Of a DNA stretch of 64,000 nt, positions 1 to 6,821 are shown in pieces. The translations under genes and the position numbers were made by a program. Under the pieces are notes generated by a model. It searched no databases. It was given only the letters and a program-made list of their open reading frames with translations, and was not told where the DNA came from. This DNA comes from a virus: positions 3,967 to 67,966 of the IMG/VR virus record IMGVR_UViG_3300032294_001984. One strand, 5' to 3'. Every line of letters starts with the position of its first letter. Within the stretch, counting starts at the first letter, position 1.

Positions 1-2
1 TT

Positions 3-704
3 GATAGACAAAATTTAAAGGAAATATGTGATGAAATCGTTAGAGTTAATAAAACCAAACAAAAGAAAACTTATTTATTTTTCGACCAAATTTATTCTGA
101 TTTAGTTCCAAATGAATTATTCGCGCATCCATTAGATGTTTGTCCTGAAATCCGTGATTATTTAATTTGTGTTGATGGAATTTCAAAATCTTTATGTGCG
201 ACCGGTGTTAGAGTTGGATGGGTTTTTGGTCCGGAATTTGTCATAGGCAAAATGACCGAAATTTTTTCACATATTGGAGCTTGGTCCCCAAAACCTGAAC
301 AAAATGCGGTTGCAAAATATTTTAATGAATATGAATTGATTGGAGAATTTATTTCAAACAAAATAAACCAATATTCAGAAATCTCTGATAAAATTTGTTC
401 AAAATTGGATGAATTAAAAGAAAAAAATTATAAAATTGATTATCAAAAACCTGAAGGGGGGATTTATATATCAATCTACATTGAAGACTCCATACATTTT
501 GATAATGTTGAAGATTATACAAAATTTTTAATTGAATCTTGTGGTGTAGGGTTGGTTCCATTTGAATATTTTGGAACCAATAAAAACCGGGGATGGTTTA
601 GATTATCTATGGGAGGAATTGATTTAAACAATATTGAAGATATTAACATTGGTTTGGAAAAAATTTGTATTAATTCAAGATTAGAAGTGATGCAAACATC
701 ATAA
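3..704 (+). CDS. PLP-dependent aminotransferase class I/II (5' end outside the window)
   Basis: The frame is open from position 3, upstream of the listed ORF 252..704. It contains FFDQIY (DEIY-like), the PLP-lysine motif GISKSLCATGVRVGW and a C-terminal WFRLS. Confidence 0.85.
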   Translation, partial: DRQNLKEICDEIVRVNKTKQKKTYLFFDQIYSDLVPNELFAHPLDVCPEIRDYLICVDGISKSLCATGVRVGWVFGPEFVIGKMTEIFSHIGAWSPKPEQNAVAKYFNEYELIGEFISNKINQYSEISDKICSKLDELKEKNYKIDYQKPEGGIYISIYIEDSIHFDNVEDYTKFLIESCGVGLVPFEYFGTNKNRGWFRLSMGGIDLNNIEDINIGLEKICINSRLEVMQTS

Positions 705-716
705 TCTAAAAAAAAA

Positions 717-744
717 TTGACATTTCAGGAACTTTTTCTACTAT
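717..744 (+). promoter_or_regulatory. Candidate promoter upstream of the leader ORF
   Basis: TTGACA (717-722), 16-nt spacer, TACTAT (739-744). Confidence 0.4.
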
Positions 745-785
745 TGAGATAGTTATATATTAAACAACAAAAATTTTAAAAAAAA

Positions 786-896
786 ATGAAACCAATAAAC
801 AAAAATATGATTAGTAAACGTCAACCCCAGATTAGTATCTGTTGGTATCCGCGTATTACGCATAGTTCGGTTATTGGTGAATCCAATATAAGTTAA
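786..896 (+). CDS. Putative leader (attenuator) peptide of the tRNA array, MKPINKNMISKRQPQISICWYPRITHSSVIGESNIS
   Basis: ATG786 (or ATG807) follows an A-rich tract and the ORF ends at TAA894-896. Codons at 807-857 match the anticodons of the downstream tRNAs. A terminator follows. Confidence 0.7.
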   Translation: MKPINKNMISKRQPQISICWYPRITHSSVIGESNIS

Positions 897-924
897 GATT
901 AAATTAATTAGTAATAAAATCGAG

Positions 925-965
925 AACCCCGAACTTCTAAAAAAAGTTTGGGGTTTTTTGTTTTT
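925..965 (+). terminator. Intrinsic terminator/attenuator between the leader ORF and the tRNA array
   Basis: Stem AACCCCGAACTT (925-936) / AAGTTTGGGGTT (944-955), followed by TTTTGTTTTT. Confidence 0.85.
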
Positions 966-989
966 ATACCCTGATAAAAAAAAAAGTTG

Positions 990-997
990 TAATTTTG
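990..997 (+). promoter_or_regulatory. Bacteroidota-type -7 promoter element (TAnnTTTG)
   Basis: TAATTTTG lies 20 nt before the boxA-like site, the same layout as upstream of the tmRNA. Confidence 0.5.
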
Positions 998-1017
998 TAT
1001 CGTCAAATAAAAAACGA

Positions 1018-1032
1018 AATTGTTCTTTGAAA
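1018..1032 (+). promoter_or_regulatory. boxA-like antitermination element
   Basis: AATTGTTCTTTGAAA. An identical 15-mer precedes the tmRNA on the minus strand (6827-6841). It resembles rrn boxA. Confidence 0.65.
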
Positions 1033-1050
1033 TAATGTAACCATAAAAAC

Positions 1051-1125
1051 AGGGGTATAGTCTCGGGGTGAGACGCTTGCTTTGGGAGCAAGAGGCGGGG
1101 AATTCGACTTTCTCTACCCCTACCA
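1051..1125 (+). tRNA. tRNA-Pro(TGG)
   Basis: Acceptor stem AGGGGTA/TACCCCT, anticodon arm CTTGC-TTTGGGA-GCAAG, encoded CCA. Confidence 0.92.
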
Positions 1126-1128
1126 TAT

Positions 1129-1200
1129 TGTCACGTAATTCAGTGGTAGAATCCTTCCCTGATACGGAAGTCGTCAGAGGTTCGAATCCTCTCGTGACAA
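1129..1200 (+). tRNA. tRNA-Ile(GAT)
   Basis: Acceptor TGTCACG/CGTGACA, anticodon arm CTTCC-CTGATAC-GGAAG, T-loop TTCGAAT. Confidence 0.93.
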
Positions 1201-1207
1201 CAAAAAA

Positions 1208-1273
1208 ATCGTTACTCGGTCACGAGTGAAGGTGTGTAATGATATCAACACCGCAGGTTAAGCGATATCCTGC
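1208..1273 (+). ncRNA. Unidentified small structured RNA (three hairpins) inside the tRNA array
   Basis: Stems TTACTCG/CGAGTGA, GGTGT/ACACC and GCAGG/CCTGC. It is a GC-rich island with no acceptor stem. Confidence 0.5.
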
Positions 1274-1278
1274 AATTC

Positions 1279-1349
1279 TCCCTCGAAGCTTTAAGGTGAA
1301 GCACGATACTTTTAATATCGAGAAGTTGGGTCGGTACCATCCGGGGGAA
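1279..1349 (+). tRNA. tRNA-Lys(TTT) with an atypical T arm
   Basis: Acceptor TCCCTCG/CGGGGGA, anticodon arm CGATA-CTTTTAA-TATCG, non-canonical T-loop GTCGGTA. Confidence 0.8.
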
Positions 1350-1359
1350 CAAATTTTAT

Positions 1360-1431
1360 GTTTGGATGGCCGAGTGGTTTAGGTTCTCGTCTGCAAAATG
1401 AGATAGGTCGGTTCGATTCCGACTCCAAACT
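1360..1431 (+). tRNA. tRNA-Cys(GCA)
   Basis: Acceptor GTTTGGA/TCCAAAC, anticodon arm CTCGT-CTGCAAA-ATGAG, U73 discriminator. Confidence 0.93.
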
Positions 1432-1442
1432 CAAAAAAAAAT

Positions 1443-1513
1443 GTATCTTTGGTGTAACGGTAGCATAAACGGTTCCAACCCGTTTGGTCAGAGTTCGAAT
1501 CTTTGAGGATATG
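1443..1513 (+). tRNA. tRNA-Trp(CCA)
   Basis: Acceptor GTATCTT/AGGATAT, anticodon arm AACGG-TTCCAAC-CCGTT, G73. Confidence 0.85.
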
Positions 1514-1524
1514 CAAATTTAATT

Positions 1525-1610
1525 GGAAGTGTTGAGCAAATGGTGTGCTCGCCTGTCTGTAAAATAGGTCCCTTGCGGTAAACTTGTAGGTTCAAGTCCT
1601 ACCACTTCCA
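1525..1610 (+). tRNA. tRNA-Tyr(GTA)
   Basis: Acceptor GGAAGTG/CACTTCC, anticodon arm CCTGT-CTGTAAA-ATAGG, long variable arm. Confidence 0.92.
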
Positions 1611-1617
1611 CATTTAT

Positions 1618-1688
1618 TGTTGGGTCGTCTAACGGTAAGACATCTCCCTTTGAAGGAGATTACGGTGGTTCGAATCCACCCCCGACAA
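1618..1688 (+). tRNA. tRNA-Gln(TTG)
   Basis: Acceptor TGTTGGG/CCCGACA, anticodon arm TCTCC-CTTTGAA-GGAGA. Confidence 0.92.
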
Positions 1689-1701
1689 CTTTTTTAATTA
1701 T

Positions 1702-1775
1702 AATCCCTTAGCTTAATGGAATGGAGCACTTGAATACGAATCAAGAGGTTGTGGGTTCGAATCCTTCCAAAACCA
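1702..1775 (+). pseudogene. tRNA-Arg(ACG) with an unpaired acceptor stem (chimeric or pseudo-tRNA)
   Basis: The D arm and anticodon arm (CTTGA-ATACGAA-TCAAG) are intact, but 5' AATCCCT cannot pair with 3' CAAAACC. Confidence 0.7.
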
Positions 1776-1780
1776 CAAAT

Positions 1781-1852
1781 TGCGATGTAGTTCAGTGGTA
1801 GAACGCTTGACTCATATCCAAGAAGTCGAAGGTTCAATTCCTTCCATCGCAA
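1781..1852 (+). tRNA. tRNA-Met(CAT) (Met, fMet or Ile2 identity not resolved)
   Basis: Acceptor TGCGATG/CATCGCA, anticodon loop CTCATAT. Confidence 0.88.
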
Positions 1853-1934
1853 CAATTTTTTCACAAATGATGTCCTTTTGATTTGGAAATTAGTGAGATT
1901 TTTTTTATATTTGCAGTTAATCAATTTTTATAAT

Positions 1935-2255
1935 ATGTTACAAAAAAGAAAAAATTCGTTTAAACGAATTGTTAAAGAATACAAAGATGCAACCACAAGA
2001 GAAATTATAGAAGCAATAGTGGATAATGCCTTATATGGGTTCTTAGGTGCGGTCATAGTAGTTGCGATTGCGACCAAAATGGATGTTGCGGTATTAGGTG
2101 CGTATTTCATTTATTATTCTTATGTCGGTAAAATAATCAATCGTCCTAAGTATGTTACCGACCTTGGTAAAATCGTTATATTCCCAACATCATCAGCGTT
2201 AGGAGCCTTTACCGGTTACAAATTGAGTTATCACATATTGGAGTGGTTAAAATAA
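1935..2255 (+). CDS. Hypothetical membrane protein inside the tRNA array
   Basis: Part of ORF 1878..2255, with ATG1935 the preferred start after a TATATTTG element. Two or three hydrophobic segments. Confidence 0.7.
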   Translation: MLQKRKNSFKRIVKEYKDATTREIIEAIVDNALYGFLGAVIVVAIATKMDVAVLGAYFIYYSYVGKIINRPKYVTDLGKIVIFPTSSALGAFTGYKLSYHILEWLK

Positions 2256-2256
2256 T

Positions 2257-2340
2257 GGAAGGTTGTCAGAGCGGTAATGAGGCAGTTTGCTAAACTGTGG
2301 TCGAGGAATCGGCCCGTGGGTTCGAATCCCGCACCTTCCG
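2257..2340 (+). tRNA. tRNA-Ser(GCT)
   Basis: Acceptor GGAAGGT/ACCTTCC, anticodon arm GCAGT-TTGCTAA-ACTGT, long variable arm, G73. Confidence 0.93.
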
Positions 2341-2437
2341 CAAAAAATAAAGTTAAAATAGTTGACAACGTTAGTAATATGGTCTATATTTATAATCTCA
2401 AGAATAATAATTTATAAACAAAAAAAATTTAGTAAAA

Positions 2438-2602
2438 ATGAAAAAAATCTTAGCTTTAATCACAATCGTAACATTGGTTTCTTGTGGTAGTGGAACATCA
2501 ACTGAAATTAACTCTGAAGATACGACAATGGTTGTTGATTCAATTGCGTCTATTGACACAACTTCATTAGTTGTAGACACAACAATGACCGAAAGTAAAT
2601 AA
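2438..2602 (+). CDS. Small lipoprotein (54 aa), absent from the ORF track
   Basis: MKKILALITIVTLVSC signal peptide with lipobox, then a mature part GSGTSTEINSEDTTMVVDSIASIDTTSLVVDTTMTESK. Confidence 0.8.
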   Translation: MKKILALITIVTLVSCGSGTSTEINSEDTTMVVDSIASIDTTSLVVDTTMTESK

Positions 2603-2625
2603 TTAAAATAGAAGATGATTAAATT

Positions 2626-2654
2626 AAAAAATCCACCAATTGGTGGATTTTTTT
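2626..2654. terminator. Bidirectional intrinsic terminator
   Basis: AAAAAATCCACCA-AT-TGGTGGATTTTTTT between convergent genes. Confidence 0.8.
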
Positions 2655-2655
2655 G

Positions 2656-3792
2656 TTATAGTAAACCTTTAATTCTTTTTATATTTTCTTCTAATTTATC
2701 TTTTTTATTTACCTTAAATAAATTATCTTTCATTTTTATAAATTCCCTCGCTAATTCGTTATCATAACGAGAATAATCTTTAGAATCACTCTTATCGGGA
2801 TAAGTAGTTGTTTTACTATCAGTTTTAAAAAAAGAACTAAACCCTTTGTCTGAATCAGTTTTCTTATTTGAATTAATTTTTTGTTTATCTCCTTTTGAGT
2901 TAAGTAATGTTACTTTAACATCAGAATCAGGAGAGCCTATTACTTCACCTTTTTTTATTTTTTGACCAATCCTAAATCTTGACGACTCAACACCACAATA
3001 ATTAAGATATGACGTTTTACCTTCAGACTCAAATTTTATAGTTAATCCATTACAATCATTAAAATATTTACTAACAACTCCTGAAACAGGGCTTTTAATA
3101 TTTGAATTTTCTTTTTTTGGTATGAGTATATCACCGAACCTTAAACTTGTTTTTTTACCAAGTGATTCATAATCTAAAGATTCTGTGATACCCATCTTCG
3201 CAACCAATCCCTTAGCGACTTGGGCTAGAAATCCGTCATTTTTATCACTTACTGAATTAGTATTAGTGTTTGAGGATGTATTTGTTGTGTCAGTATCCTT
3301 TGATGGTGTTGAGGTTGTGTTTGAAATATGTACGTGATTAAAATGGTTTCCTCCTGTGTTTGTTTGCCATAAGACCGCTTTAGGATTACCTGACTCTGTG
3401 TTCCAAACATATCCCATTGAAACCAACGCATCTTTTAATTTATTACCAAGTTCTCTAAATTTGGCATTACCATTAGTACTGTTAGTTGCTCCATTTGAAC
3501 CAATTCCATTTATCCTTGCAACATCCACCGCATCACCTGTTTCGTGTCTAGTACCTTTATCATGACCACTCACTGCCGTTGTAATATTTACTTTAAGACC
3601 AGCTGATTTTGCGGCGCTCTGAACATCTTGTAATAGTGAAGTATTAATGTTATCGGAGGCAGGATTACCCTGACCGATATTTTCAAAATCAACATTATCA
3701 TACACATCCGATGCCTCATTAACATTCTTGTTCTCAAGAATGACATCATATAATGATAAGATTTCTTTAATTGTTTTATTTCGAGTATTCAT
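2656..3792 (-). CDS. Putative peptidoglycan peptidase (M15/LAS-type domain plus degenerate M23-like domain)
   Basis: Zinc-ligand pattern RHETGDAVD (H-x6-D) and HFNHVHIS (HxH). The C-terminal IKSPVSGVV...GQKIKKGEVIG resembles the M23 fold. Confidence 0.6.
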   Translation of the reverse strand: MNTRNKTIKEILSLYDVILENKNVNEASDVYDNVDFENIGQGNPASDNINTSLLQDVQSAAKSAGLKVNITTAVSGHDKGTRHETGDAVDVARINGIGSNGATNSTNGNAKFRELGNKLKDALVSMGYVWNTESGNPKAVLWQTNTGGNHFNHVHISNTTSTPSKDTDTTNTSSNTNTNSVSDKNDGFLAQVAKGLVAKMGITESLDYESLGKKTSLRFGDILIPKKENSNIKSPVSGVVSKYFNDCNGLTIKFESEGKTSYLNYCGVESSRFRIGQKIKKGEVIGSPDSDVKVTLLNSKGDKQKINSNKKTDSDKGFSSFFKTDSKTTTYPDKSDSKDYSRYDNELAREFIKMKDNLFKVNKKDKLEENIKRIKGLL

Positions 3793-3813
3793 ACTAATAA
3801 ATACTCGAAATTT

Positions 3814-3996
3814 CTAAAATTCTTCTTTAGGGATAAAAAACCACAATATTAAATATATTGTTGTAATAGGAACCGGAGTGAAGATTAACCCAAAAAATAT
3901 AAGTTTAATGATAGTTCCATCAATACCAATGTAATTACCGATTCCTTCACATACTCCACCAATTGTTGATGATATAGGTCTTTTTAGTTTTTTCAT
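3814..3996 (-). CDS. PspC-domain protein
   Basis: IGGVCEGIGNYIGID...YLILWFFIP is the PspC signature. Confidence 0.85.
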   Translation of the reverse strand: MKKLKRPISSTIGGVCEGIGNYIGIDGTIIKLIFFGLIFTPVPITTIYLILWFFIPKEEF

Positions 3997-3997
3997 A

Positions 3998-4213
3998 TTA
4001 TTTTCTTTTTAATGTTACAATTATAAATGTATCTTGTTGAGTTGCTACAACATATCTCCAACCTCTTTTAGTCATGTATTTTACATCACTATCAAATGTT
4101 TCTTCTGTTGTTTGTATATAAATTTCTTTACCTACCCCACAACTATACATTAACCCTAATAGTAGTAGTGTTTTAAATTTTAACAAACACTTGATTGTAA
4201 TATTATTCAACAT
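3998..4213 (-). CDS. Hypothetical protein (possible lipoprotein)
   Basis: Lipobox-like LLLLGLMYSC segment, in an operon with its neighbours. Confidence 0.5.
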   Translation of the reverse strand: MLNNITIKCLLKFKTLLLLGLMYSCGVGKEIYIQTTEETFDSDVKYMTKRGWRYVVATQQDTFIIVTLKRK

Positions 4214-4220
4214 TTTTATT

Positions 4221-4793
4221 TTAATTTAAAAATTTTAAAATTTTTTCTTTAATTCCTGATTGTTTAATACCTTGATTACTTTTCGGTGTAAGAACAAAGT
4301 TATCTAACCCCCAATCTTTGCAAGGTTCCCCATTTTTACCCATATCTAAATCATCAATTGCAACCCAATGAGTAATTTCGGGATGGTCGTGTAAATATTG
4401 TTTGATTTCAATTGTACGAGGTTGTTCTAAATCAAATTGGAATAACCAAGGAAACGTGTCACTATCATACCAAGTACATTGCCCTAAGTTTGGAGTAAAC
4501 GCAATAGGTTTTTTAATAATACCTTTTGATTCATAGTATTCGCCCATTTCTTCAAGAGTCGCCCAACGTTTCCAGTCGGAGGAAACCACGATTTCTGCGT
4601 CGGTTTCAATTAATATTTCATTCAAGATTTTAATTGATTTAGTGTCAAAGTTATCAAATCGGTATTGTAATGGTATATCTTGCATACTCATTGATGAGGT
4701 TTTGCCACCCCATTTAGCCTGTTTTTTAAACCGACTACCCCAATTATTAGATAAACAAATTACACCATCGTGGTCTAGCATCAACACTTTCAT
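4221..4793 (-). CDS. HAD-family phosphatase (Swiss-army-knife RNA-repair type)
   Basis: Motifs LDHDGV, IVVSSDW and WVAIDD. Confidence 0.8.
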   Translation of the reverse strand: MKVLMLDHDGVICLSNNWGSRFKKQAKWGGKTSSMSMQDIPLQYRFDNFDTKSIKILNEILIETDAEIVVSSDWKRWATLEEMGEYYESKGIIKKPIAFTPNLGQCTWYDSDTFPWLFQFDLEQPRTIEIKQYLHDHPEITHWVAIDDLDMGKNGEPCKDWGLDNFVLTPKSNQGIKQSGIKEKILKFLN

Positions 4794-4872
4794 CCTACAA
4801 ATATAGTAAAAAGATAACTAATATCCAAATAATTTTTGAAAAGATATTGACATTTTGTGGATTGTTCGATAG

Positions 4873-6381
4873 TTAAATCTCTTTTAATTTACCTGATTTA
4901 AACAATTCAAAATTAGGTCCTTTTTTCAAATAAAACTGATTACCTTTTTTATCGTAATCTAATATTCCTGCTAATCTTGCTGAGTTAAATAACCCGCTTA
5001 ATTGTCCTCTAAATGCTTGTGGTATTTGCCAATTATTTCGATTTGTATGAGAATAATATGGTTTTCCGTTAACGTCTTTTTTCTGTAGTGAACCAATATC
5101 AACTAAAAAATCTAATTTTGTTCCTTTTTTATTAGAATCTAAATAATCAACTAGTTTTTTAATTAATCCAGAATCTTTTCTTTTAAATGTAAATCCGTAA
5201 CTACTTCTATTTGGAGTCCATACCGCATTTCCACCGTAAATAGATGACATAAATTCACTATTTGATTTCATTCTATAAATAACTTGTTTTGTAATTGTCC
5301 AACAAAGTTCATTAAACATTGATTTAATGCGGAAAGGACTTGTATTTTTAATAAAAGAACTAAATACTGACATATGAGTTGATACGTTTTCAATACCGAA
5401 ATCAAACTCAGGTTCAATTTCAAAATCATCACCTGAATAACCAATATTAAAATTTATTTTGTTTCCAACATCGTAAGTAATCATAACCAAATATTGGTCT
5501 ATATTTTCTCCATCCACAGAAATGTTTAATTCCATTGTTGCATGACCTGGCATATCAGGAACAAGGTCCGGTTTTTGAAACTCAAGACCGATTTTATTTT
5601 TTGTTCCTTTAAATGCTGACGACACATCTTCAAATTTATAGTTATTAAAATCAAATAGTTTTTTGAAAAATGATTGTCCGCTTTCTTTAAGGTATTGTGA
5701 ATAGTCGTTTCTGATGGTATCAATCACTTTTGGTGCTCCCAAATTAAAAACCTCTTTTTCTCTTTCACTCATTCTTTCATCTGTTGCATCATACCAAATT
5801 TCAGAACTTGGTGTTATATGGACTGCAATTTTGTAAAATTTGTTATCCCTGTTAAAGTTTTTAAGAATGATGTAATATAGTGCTTGTTCTTGAGATGTAT
5901 GACTTTCAAAATATGATGGGTTACCTGCCGTGGTGGTACACCATCTGGTACCTGAACCATATTTGCAAGAAGCCTCATAAGTTAAAGGTCTAACAATTAA
6001 AAGGTTATTATCTTCAAATATTTTTTTTGCACCAGATGCATCAAACGACTTCCTTTGTTGAGATTTTGAAGTCTCTTTGTGAAGTTCAATTTCAAGTTTT
6101 AACCCATCTAAATCATATTTGTTAATATCTTTAACCTCTAATGATTGTTTGAATCTATCAAAATCTTTAACAAGGTCTACAATACCTTCAACTTCTTCAG
6201 GTGATGCGTTTGGATGTGTATATTTTAATACGAAATCCGTATATTTGAAATTGGTGTCTGCCAAATCAGAAATACTCAAAATAAAATCCAAAGTGTCAAG
6301 ATACTCCTTAAATTTTTCAGTGTATTTTTTTCGTAAATCTTCTTTTCGACCCTCTTGTAATAGGATTTGTAATAATTTCAT
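4873..6381 (-). CDS. Hypothetical large-phage protein
   Basis: 502-aa ORF with the segment ASCKYGSGTRWCTT, preceded by the TATTTAT motif. Confidence 0.75.
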   Translation of the reverse strand: MKLLQILLQEGRKEDLRKKYTEKFKEYLDTLDFILSISDLADTNFKYTDFVLKYTHPNASPEEVEGIVDLVKDFDRFKQSLEVKDINKYDLDGLKLEIELHKETSKSQQRKSFDASGAKKIFEDNNLLIVRPLTYEASCKYGSGTRWCTTTAGNPSYFESHTSQEQALYYIILKNFNRDNKFYKIAVHITPSSEIWYDATDERMSEREKEVFNLGAPKVIDTIRNDYSQYLKESGQSFFKKLFDFNNYKFEDVSSAFKGTKNKIGLEFQKPDLVPDMPGHATMELNISVDGENIDQYLVMITYDVGNKINFNIGYSGDDFEIEPEFDFGIENVSTHMSVFSSFIKNTSPFRIKSMFNELCWTITKQVIYRMKSNSEFMSSIYGGNAVWTPNRSSYGFTFKRKDSGLIKKLVDYLDSNKKGTKLDFLVDIGSLQKKDVNGKPYYSHTNRNNWQIPQAFRGQLSGLFNSARLAGILDYDKKGNQFYLKKGPNFELFKSGKLKEI

Positions 6382-6438: not shown

Positions 6439-6821
6439 TGGTGGAGGTAGAGGTTTCGAAACCTCGTGTTGCCCATTTTGACCGTAAGTGACTACACGTT
6501 TAGGACAATCTTTTCTAAGATTCCGAAATAGTCGGTTTGTTCTTCACCATCGTAAACCTAACAACCAATGGACGACTCAATTTAAGGTTTAGTCATTTTT
6601 TCACCCGTCAAGGACTTCTGTTCCTGGGTTAATGTCCTCCCGACCCGAATGTAGTAGAGACTAGGCTACTGCTACAAGCTCATCTTGTTTAACAAGACCT
6701 ACTAGAGCCATTTTGTTTAGAACGTTGCCGTCTGTTGTTTTGAACCAGTTGATAACGAAGTTAATTCAGCTTCGACGTGCCACCTACACCCAACAATGCC
6801 AGTCAATTCCATTTTACCCCC
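6439..6821 (-). ncRNA. ssrA: tmRNA (about 383 nt)
   Basis: The 5' end GGGGGTAAAATGGAATTGAC and 3' end TACCTCCACCA form an Ala-type acceptor stem with G3:U70. There is a T arm (GAGGT-TTCGAA-ACCTC) and an internal tag ORF (6729-6661) ending ...LVAVA-stop. Confidence 0.92.

Follow-up and report, generated by a model that had tools for sequence, protein, structure and literature searches.

The window analysed here, 64,000 nucleotides of the IMG/VR virus record IMGVR_UViG_3300032294_001984 (positions 3,967 to 67,966), carries between an aminotransferase gene and an array of tRNA genes a short leader that is likely to act as a ribosome-mediated transcription attenuator of the array. The record, 67,966 bases long, is rated only 23% complete by CheckV and is thus likely to be a fragment of a jumbo phage. 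The window is AT-rich (G+C 27-37%), carries a tmRNA besides the tRNA array (ARAGORN, Rfam), and is represented in lake and other freshwater metagenomes from many studies; a megablast of its positions 1-6000 against the phages collection gave no match. The features around the leader are the following, nt standing for nucleotides and ORF for open reading frame:

ends at 704: aminotransferase gene, upstream of the promoter, leader ORF, terminator and tRNAs
717-746, + strand: predicted promoter, TTG(ACA) at 717-722, a 19-nt spacer after TTG and the box TACTATTG at 739-746
786-896, + strand: leader ORF, 36 codons plus a stop codon at 894-896 (MKPINKNMISKRQPQISICWYPRITHSSVIGESNIS)
791-798, + strand: region 1 candidate, ACCAATAA, pairing with TTATTGGT (871-878) beside region 2 and present in the minimum-energy fold
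807-857, + strand: putative sensing stretch, codons 8-24 (M I S K R Q P Q I S I C W Y P R I)
828-841, + strand: hairpin P1, CAGAT-TAGT-ATCTG, its right arm running into the Cys codon
843-856, + strand: invariant 14-mer TGGTATCCGCGTAT, codons W Y P R I, starting 2 nt past P1
864-870, + strand: region 2, AGTTCGG, 5' strand of the antiterminator
872-888, + strand: hairpin P2, TATTGG-TGAAT-CCAATA, inside the antiterminator loop
922-965, + strand: intrinsic terminator, stem 922-958 with 15 pairs, 5 of them G-C (consensus scan); left arm 925-936, right-arm core (region 4) 944-955, T run 954-959 and 961-965
929-935, + strand: region 3, CCGAACT, the strand common to both helices, on the loop-side part of the terminator left arm
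966-1020, + strand: insert of 55 nt with a promoter-like TAnnTTTG-type box TAATTTTG (990-997) and then the conserved TATCGTCAAATAAA
1021-1040, + strand: conserved pre-tRNA motif TGTTCTTTGAAATAATGTAA, just 5' of the first tRNA
1051-2341, + strand: tRNA array (ARAGORN and Rfam)
1279-1349: Lys-like tRNA (anticodon UUU; Rfam 38.3 bits), folding as a cloverleaf whose T arm is odd; missed by ARAGORN
1709-1767: decayed Arg(ACG)-like tRNA with a broken acceptor stem (Rfam 33.5 bits; missed by ARAGORN)

The proposal turns on two helices that compete for region 3. As the preliminary description of this DNA had read from the window, AGTTCGG at 864-870 is the exact reverse complement of CCGAACT at 929-935, and the latter does lie within the left arm of the terminator. 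In a single sequence the signal is modest and the match only mildly improbable: a perfect complement to one of the 7-mers of 922-939 turns up in 838 of 20,000 dinucleotide shuffles of 753-915 (472 of 20,000 when only 7-mers with at least three G/C are counted), and 2 of the 12 terminator-like hairpins in the window have an upstream complement, the other one being the trivial CTTTTTT. That the pairing goes beyond chance follows from the comparative signal across related leaders, not from the window alone.

Related leaders were collected by several routes. Starting from the aminotransferase next to the leader, we reached 26 related viral loci, four of which (L004, L005, L010 and L011) have a homologous leader before tRNA-Pro, and exact-motif scans added the leader L032. 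A scan with a 17-mer of tRNA-Pro returned 39 metagenome stretches, 13 of them with that tRNA, and in nine of these 13 the leader stands directly upstream of it. The set before the profile search held 15 loci with 7 distinct sequences in 3 lineages. Four leader peptides were then combined into a profile, which at E <= 0.001 drew 11 cluster representatives of 30-58 amino acids from 1.84 billion protein representatives, all with ...KHM...SQFxNC[W/S]YP...(I)GS. The alignment of these proteins, scanned against viral contigs, matched 80 stretches, of which 19 were confirmed and 15 were new loci with 11 distinct leader regions. The final data set comprises 18 distinct leaders from viral and metagenome contigs, and each has the promoter, an ORF of 32-40 codons, the terminator and then tRNA genes, the promoter region being missing for one of them. 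Beyond the known loci, exact-pattern scans gave chance matches only (L028, L029, L031, L036, L080, L081, L083 and L086), a promoter-pattern scan revealed no new lineage, and a leader-pattern scan of genome contigs had no matches.

For the pair counts, region 2 was anchored on an invariant GTTC lying 24-30 nt past the Cys codon and region 3 on an invariant GAAC in the left arm. Because these invariant cores were the only anchors, the variable positions of the helix were not fitted to the structure; the MAFFT alignments A2, A4 and A7 split region 2 inconsistently, and the counts were taken from the motif-anchored scripts instead. Across the 18 leaders the 7-bp helix is Watson-Crick in 126 of 126 cells. 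It occurs in four types, AGTTCGG/CCGAACT (n = 4), GGTTCGG/CCGAACC (n = 4), GGTTCGA/TCGAACC (n = 2) and AGTTCAG/CTGAACT (n = 8), so that the comparison of homologues proposed in the preliminary description finds the pairing kept in all 18 leaders, with three of its seven pairs (1, 6 and 7) changed on both sides. As controls, strands mixed between helix types form 4-6 of the 7 pairs and slid registers 0.4-2.7 of 7, and the inner end of the helix is sharp since positions 8 and 9 never pair. The pair-6 change is synonymous (TCG to TCA) and has its matching change in the terminator, and at pairs 1 and 7 the substitutions exchange one residue for another (Ser/Gly and Val/Thr); the constraint therefore acts on the RNA and not on the peptide.

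The geometry is as constant as the pairing. Region 2 starts 24-27 nt past the Cys codon in the 18 leaders (24 nt in the window) and lies within the ORF in every one of them, 8-29 nt before the stop codon (23 nt in the window). The distance from region 2 to region 3 is 46-62 nt, region 3 is always on the loop-side half of the left arm, and a terminator stands at the matching place in 18 of 18 leaders. Taken together, the paired substitutions and this placement argue that the mutually exclusive antiterminator and terminator pairings are real and under selection. The same comparison bears on a small extension of the helix that had been suggested, TT871-872 with AA925-926: the letters can indeed face each other across C927-C928, but the folds do not use them and in the relatives they are unpaired.

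The ORF that spans region 2 is equally persistent. All 18 distinct leaders keep an ORF of 32-40 codons whose start precedes the Cys codon by 54 or 57 nt, and in an alignment of 8 leader sequences from three lineages (A2) all three indels within the ORF are, by eye, of 3 nt each. A second in-frame TAA follows at 900-902 in the window. The A-rich start of the leader lacks a Shine-Dalgarno-like motif, which is normal for this genome because just 2 of the 43 long ORFs of the window have such a motif. These observations suggest that the leader ORF is a real one, and we predict that it is translated. An antisense ORF at 753-1091 (112 amino acids) was considered as a gene and rejected, being broken into 55 and 45 amino acids in L004 and reduced to 57 in L042.

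Upstream of the ORF, a sigma-70-type scan picks out TTGACA-16-TACTAT at 717-744 with a score of 10/12. Thirteen of the 18 leaders carry an exact TAnnTTTG box at the promoter place, and four, those of the window's lineage, carry it with a single mismatch; the remaining leader has no upstream DNA. A TTG sits 19-20 nt 5' of the box in 12 leaders. The box is a candidate for the -7 promoter type of Bacteroidota. The motif as such is not enriched across the window (119 found versus 110 +/- 10 expected). At the far end of the module, a motif GTTCTTTGA(A/C)ATA(A/T)TGGTAA is found 12-25 nt 5' of the first tRNA in every lineage, whether that tRNA is Pro, Gln or Ser; the stretch 1021-1040 of the window belongs to the leader module. 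At each of the nine new loci in which tRNAs were looked for, the first of them begins about 100-150 nt past the leader stop codon.

What the ORF would sense is suggested by its codons. The array reads Pro, Ile, Lys-like, Cys, Trp, Tyr, Gln, decayed Arg-like, Met, a 125-codon ORF and Ser(GCU), and eight of these tRNAs (Pro, Ile, Cys, Trp, Tyr, Gln, Met and Ser(GCU)) are called by ARAGORN. With those eight alone, 10 consecutive codons of the window leader are matched (P = 7e-6, simulated like the other values against the codon usage of the 43 long ORFs in the window), and the matched run grows to 17 codons when the Lys-like and Arg-like genes are counted (P = 5e-7). The matched run of L004 is 22 codons (P = 3e-5), counting a Trp(CCA)-like gene at 1420-1491 of that locus that has a similar odd T arm and is found by Rfam only (47 bits). 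In L101 the array matches 29 of 32 leader codons, and for L100, L101 and L103, whose arrays were recovered more fully than those of the other new loci, P ranges from 6e-3 to 6e-4. Residues without an array tRNA (A, D, E, G, L and T) cluster past region 2. Thus, the leader ORF appears to be largely spelled in the codons of the tRNAs behind it.

A second structure sits on these codons. The preliminary description had listed CAGAT/ATCTG (828-841) among several competing pairings, and this one, hairpin P1, is both present and conserved with covariation. Among its 7 distinct versions, every one of the 35 cells of the inner 5 pairs forms a pair, where slid registers reach 5-13 of 35. Pairs 2, 3 and 6 occur as several pair types, the third base of the Cys codon included; across three lineages 3 of the 7 pairs are changed on both sides and none in the slid controls, and synonymous changes in the Gln, Asn and Cys codons are compensatory within P1. 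The 14-mer TGGTATCCGCGTAT that follows is by eye conserved across lineages even at synonymous sites, the exception being its first codon, TCG in the lineages of L103-L107 and L110. We suspect that P1 and the 14-mer (843-856) form a hairpin-dependent polymerase pause that would let the ribosome catch up.

The other pairings listed in that description fare less uniformly. Pairing of ACCAATAA (791-798) with TTATTGGT (871-878) is present in the window, where the best duplex between the 5' part of the ORF and the neighbourhood of region 2 has -13.6 to -15.1 kcal/mol; such a duplex ranges from -7.6 to -19.8 kcal/mol in relatives in differing registers, and some relatives have an analogue that is differently placed (GAACUAAUAAA with UUUAUUGGUUC in L004 and L042). 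Hairpin P2, TATTGG/CCAATA, is predicted to form whenever the antiterminator does, but its sequence is not kept outside the window's lineage. The pairing GCGT/ACGC (851-861) exists as well, and by eye a similar small GCG...CGC hairpin is seen in the ...PRISH... lineages and not in the others.

To model the effect of translation, transcripts cut just past region 3 were folded with a ribosome footprint of -12 to +15 around the P site. With the ribosome stalled on the Cys to Arg codons, the probability of region 2:3 pairing, P(2:3), is 0.85-0.97 in the window and 0.98-0.99 in L004, and in L042 it is 0.90-0.98 from the Trp codon on. Region 2 is free in this state because the footprint ends before 864, in agreement with what had been proposed for a ribosome stalled at these codons. 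Over 11 representatives stalled on the Cys to Pro codons P(2:3) is 0.64-1.00, except in L042 at Cys (0.17). A ribosome on region 2 itself brings the value to 0 in the window, L004 and L042, and because the ORF spans region 2 in all leaders, translating ribosomes have to cross it. With the ribosome at the stop codon it is 0.10 in the window, 0.11 in L004 and 0.02 in L042, and the difference between stalled and stop states was reached by 3, 13 and 0 of 150 shuffles, respectively. The low stop-state values in these three stem from a long-range helix that joins the start region to sequence next to region 2; a region 1:2 anti-antiterminator is predicted in the window, L004, L042 and L101. In models with no ribosome, P(2:3) is 0.65-0.99 in 10 of the 11 representatives.

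We favor, at a probability of roughly three in four, the interpretation that the leader is a ribosome-mediated leader-peptide transcription attenuator gating the tRNA array of an uncultured freshwater jumbo phage. The exclusive pairings, the fixed geometry, the conserved ORF, P1 and the match between codons and tRNAs are all backed by comparison at the level of sequence. Beyond them, we infer that the position of the ribosome sets the choice between the helices, that a pause at P1 and the 14-mer synchronises polymerase and ribosome, and that slow decoding leads to more tRNA. According to this scheme, transcription would begin at the promoter at 717-746 and yield a nascent RNA bearing the 36-codon ORF, the middle of which is spelled in the codons of the downstream tRNAs. 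If decoding were slow, the lead ribosome would halt somewhere from about codon 8 to codon 24 with its footprint ending before 864, and region 2 (864-870), being free, would pair with region 3 (929-935) once the latter emerged. The terminator stem would then be unable to nucleate and the polymerase would continue into tRNA-Pro and the rest of the array. If decoding were fast, ribosomes would run over region 2, which is inside the ORF, region 3 would be left for region 4 (944-955), and transcription would end at the T run.

Several observations weigh against this interpretation or limit it. The 18 leaders are one homologous family in which three of the seven helix pairs vary, and the independent compensatory events are few, by our estimate at least three. 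The terminator hairpin of the window (-15.9 to -19.3 kcal/mol) is stabler than the antiterminator duplex (-10.2 kcal/mol); in L004 the hairpin and the duplex have -22.7 and -14.5 kcal/mol, and in L042 -18.6 and -12.1 kcal/mol. As in classical attenuators, equilibrium favors the terminator, and the antiterminator therefore has to prevail through kinetics, by being the first to form. In transcripts that do not yet reach region 3, region 2 of L004 and L042 is predicted to pair with the start region whatever the footprint, and with Cys in the A site L042 gives a P(2:3) of just 0.13-0.17, a low value that arises because the model lets a helix close around the bound ribosome. The codon match is not significant for L096 and L097 (P = 0.2) or for L098 (P = 0.2), for which part of the array was fetched, nor for L042 against the array seen there (P = 0.12). 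Finally, 4 of the 13 metagenome loci with tRNA-Pro have no leader directly upstream of it; other tRNAs come first in three of them (L049, L056 and L059), and the fourth (L068) is an unrelated context.

Further points concern release. The preliminary description had assumed that a ribosome moving on through region 2 would allow the terminator to form and had called the arrangement classical attenuator geometry. The classical geometry holds for the stalled state only. Occlusion of region 2 lasts just as long as a ribosome is passing over it, and a ribosome at the stop codon of the window, 23 nt past region 2, leaves 864-870 unmasked; among the leaders, such a ribosome would mask the segment in L101 alone (8 nt), with L098 and L100 as marginal cases (14 nt). 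The release state thus needs either following ribosomes or a pairing such as 791-798 with 871-878, and the latter is not general: region 1:2 is weak or ineffective in L098, L100, L103, L104, L105 and L107, and in these same six of the 11 representatives the stop-state P(2:3) is 0.71-0.98 (it is 0.30 in L096). We therefore regard the passage from free translation to termination as the least settled step of the proposal. A train of ribosomes, or timing set by a pause, would accomplish this step. In lineages without region 1 the default of an untranslated leader would be read-through, which fits a sensor of translation failure.

Other explanations of the same data can be weighed against the attenuator. 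The RNA switch might be the same with the ribosome halted by its nascent peptide, through an arrest motif around QFxNCWYPR and perhaps a cofactor, instead of by a scarcity of the array's tRNAs. The peptide core is in fact more conserved than a sampler of codons would need, C, Y and P being invariant and Q-F-x-N-C-[W/S]-Y-P present in 13 of 13 aligned peptides with few exceptions, and TGGTATCCGCGTAT is invariant even at synonymous sites. Much of this conservation is explained by the RNA, however, as P1 covers the Q-F-S-N-C codons; the residue following P varies (R, C, N or Q), and the composition of the remainder of the sensing stretch tracks the arrays, the window's stretch having no N, V, F or H where that of L004 has them together with the matching tRNAs. 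On balance we consider peptide arrest unlikely. If instead the leader did not depend on translation at all and switched upon binding a protein, a tRNA or a small molecule, the ORF would be incidental. The pairing evidence by itself does not require translation, and the ribosome-free models favor region 2:3 in most lineages. Such a switch nevertheless leaves the conservation of ORF, start and frame in 18 of 18 leaders, the location of region 2 inside the ORF throughout and the fit of codon content to array without a reason, and no Rfam family, T-box included, reaches threshold on 700-1400; we think it very improbable. It is hardly credible that the ORF is just a small protein gene of the usual kind, followed by a terminator of its own, and that the complementarity is functionless. 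Even if a 7-mer complement arises in about 4% of window-only shuffles, this account fails on a helix that is paired in 126 of 126 cells with three pairs altered on both strands, and on the fixed placement.

A different kind of alternative concerns the window's lineage, in which the insert at 966-1020 may provide another promoter and so supply the array on its own, a point that also counts against gating by the leader. The array would then be driven mainly from the insert, with the leader and terminator a minor upstream unit or a relic. By alignment the insert, with its TAnnTTTG-type box and conserved segment, is common to the window's lineage, L104, L105, L107 and L110. The box motif is frequent by chance in AT-rich DNA, as the window-wide count given above illustrates, and by eye there is no -33 TTG at the usual distance from it. 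Seven other lineages (L004, L042, L096, L097, L098, L101 and L103) are without the insert, their terminator standing directly before the pre-tRNA motif and first tRNA, and by eye leave no room for a separate promoter. Moreover, in four lake runs the variants tabulated, from a set that holds 100 more, lie in the 5' untranslated region (774, 778 and 783) and past the terminator (968-993); among them none falls within 784-955, while the tRNAs and ORF behind them vary. We judge independent drive from the insert a poor candidate, less likely even than peptide arrest.

Two further observations concern the terminator and the transcript. Word depth over 905-965 climbs 5- to 10-fold in lake metagenomes and other upstream sequences join at about 926, from which we conclude that near-identical terminators are used in other contexts or in related phages. 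A metatranscriptome contig of 204 nt covers 724-929 at a depth of 2.7. It begins 5' of the place where the transcript is predicted to start, DNA may be present in the library, and transcript ends cannot be read from contigs; neither this contig nor the parts lacking coverage were used as evidence.

Elsewhere around the array, relatives of the phage differ in gene order. Locus L007 (5242-5330, compared with window 704-1853) has an aminotransferase that is 99% identical and runs directly into tRNA-Met, without the leader and without the first tRNAs, and in most other relatives the tRNA array is upstream, not downstream, of the aminotransferase; these arrangements indicate that the array has been rearranged repeatedly. 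In L002 tRNA-Ser and tRNA-Ile are separated by a stretch of 600 nt (1427-2026) with higher G+C, no ORF and a terminator-like hairpin at its end, which may encode a structured RNA. At 380-1622 of L088 there are several tRNA-like units that have long inserts and nearly the same 3' end (CAGGTTCGAATCCTGTCCTGACT), and of these ARAGORN calls part only (His, Ser, Met and a doubtful Phe-aaa); these may be tRNAs with introns or long arms. In the window itself the full-length tmRNA is encoded at 6439-6821 on the - strand (73.7 bits), and a AGTATTTAT-like motif recurs in front of several genes, 10-20 nt 5' of their start codons, perhaps as a phage promoter or translation signal.

Leader-peptide attenuators are best known from the enterobacterial amino-acid operons trp, his, leu, thr, ilv and pheA. 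The element proposed here resembles them in its order of promoter, short ORF with diagnostic codons and terminator before the first regulated gene, and in having a strand that would pair either upstream or with the left arm of the terminator, as the position of the ribosome would dictate. It differs in that the regulated genes are phage tRNA genes rather than genes for biosynthetic enzymes, that the sensing stretch is about 17 codons in which some ten amino acids are mixed, that region 2 is inside the ORF, well 5' of the stop codon, and that the partner in region 1 is weak or absent in several lineages while an extra hairpin, P1, sits on the sensing codons. Several amino acids are read by one leader in the multivalent leaders of ilvGMEDA and thr, where two or three are sensed and protein genes are controlled, and E. 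coli pheST is a gene of the translation apparatus under leader-peptide attenuation. Unlike in these, the controlled product of the present leader, tRNA, would be the very molecule whose supply the leader reads, making for a direct feedback loop.

The T-box riboswitch binds uncharged tRNA directly and needs no ORF. The likeness to it lies in a choice between antiterminator and terminator that reports tRNA status; in our case the readout would be the speed of decoding. No T-box was found among the 26 Rfam matches at E <= 10 on 700-1400, and none at gathering score in the whole window; the best match on 700-1400 other than tRNA had 28.6 bits against a threshold of 90, and no Rfam leader family reached threshold on 700-1400 or in the whole window. 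The Bacteroid-trp leader of Rfam, a predicted leader-peptide motif of Bacteroidota, likewise consists of a short ORF and a terminator, and the promoter type of the phage and its lack of Shine-Dalgarno motifs resemble Bacteroidota; the codons and the regulated genes differ. A full-text literature search, with subscription journals outside its coverage, found no report of leader-peptide attenuation of tRNA genes, and the terms for tRNA genes and operons do not occur in PMC2965389.

Why phages carry tRNA genes has long been debated. A recent answer, given in PMC10264068 and PMC11464382, is that phage tRNAs replace host tRNAs destroyed by defence nucleases. Host defence that cleaves tRNAs, or host shut-off, would be an example of a trigger to which a leader such as this one could respond. 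Going beyond the single locus, and with somewhat less assurance than we attach to the attenuator itself, we lean toward the view that tRNA arrays in freshwater jumbo phages are under direct feedback: a leader written in the array's own codons would gauge decoding and open the terminator only when decoding falters, and this arrangement would be conserved and co-evolve with the array. If this is correct, leader-peptide attenuation of the textbook kind would extend to RNA genes and to viruses, with tRNA genes as the regulated output of a trp-type attenuator that serves as a sensor of translation failure. The element would also offer, in about 250 nt, a compact and testable device for measuring tRNA availability in vivo. 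Above all, the tRNAs of these phages would not be mere spares; they would be deployed on demand, by a sensor written in the same codons that they serve to read.

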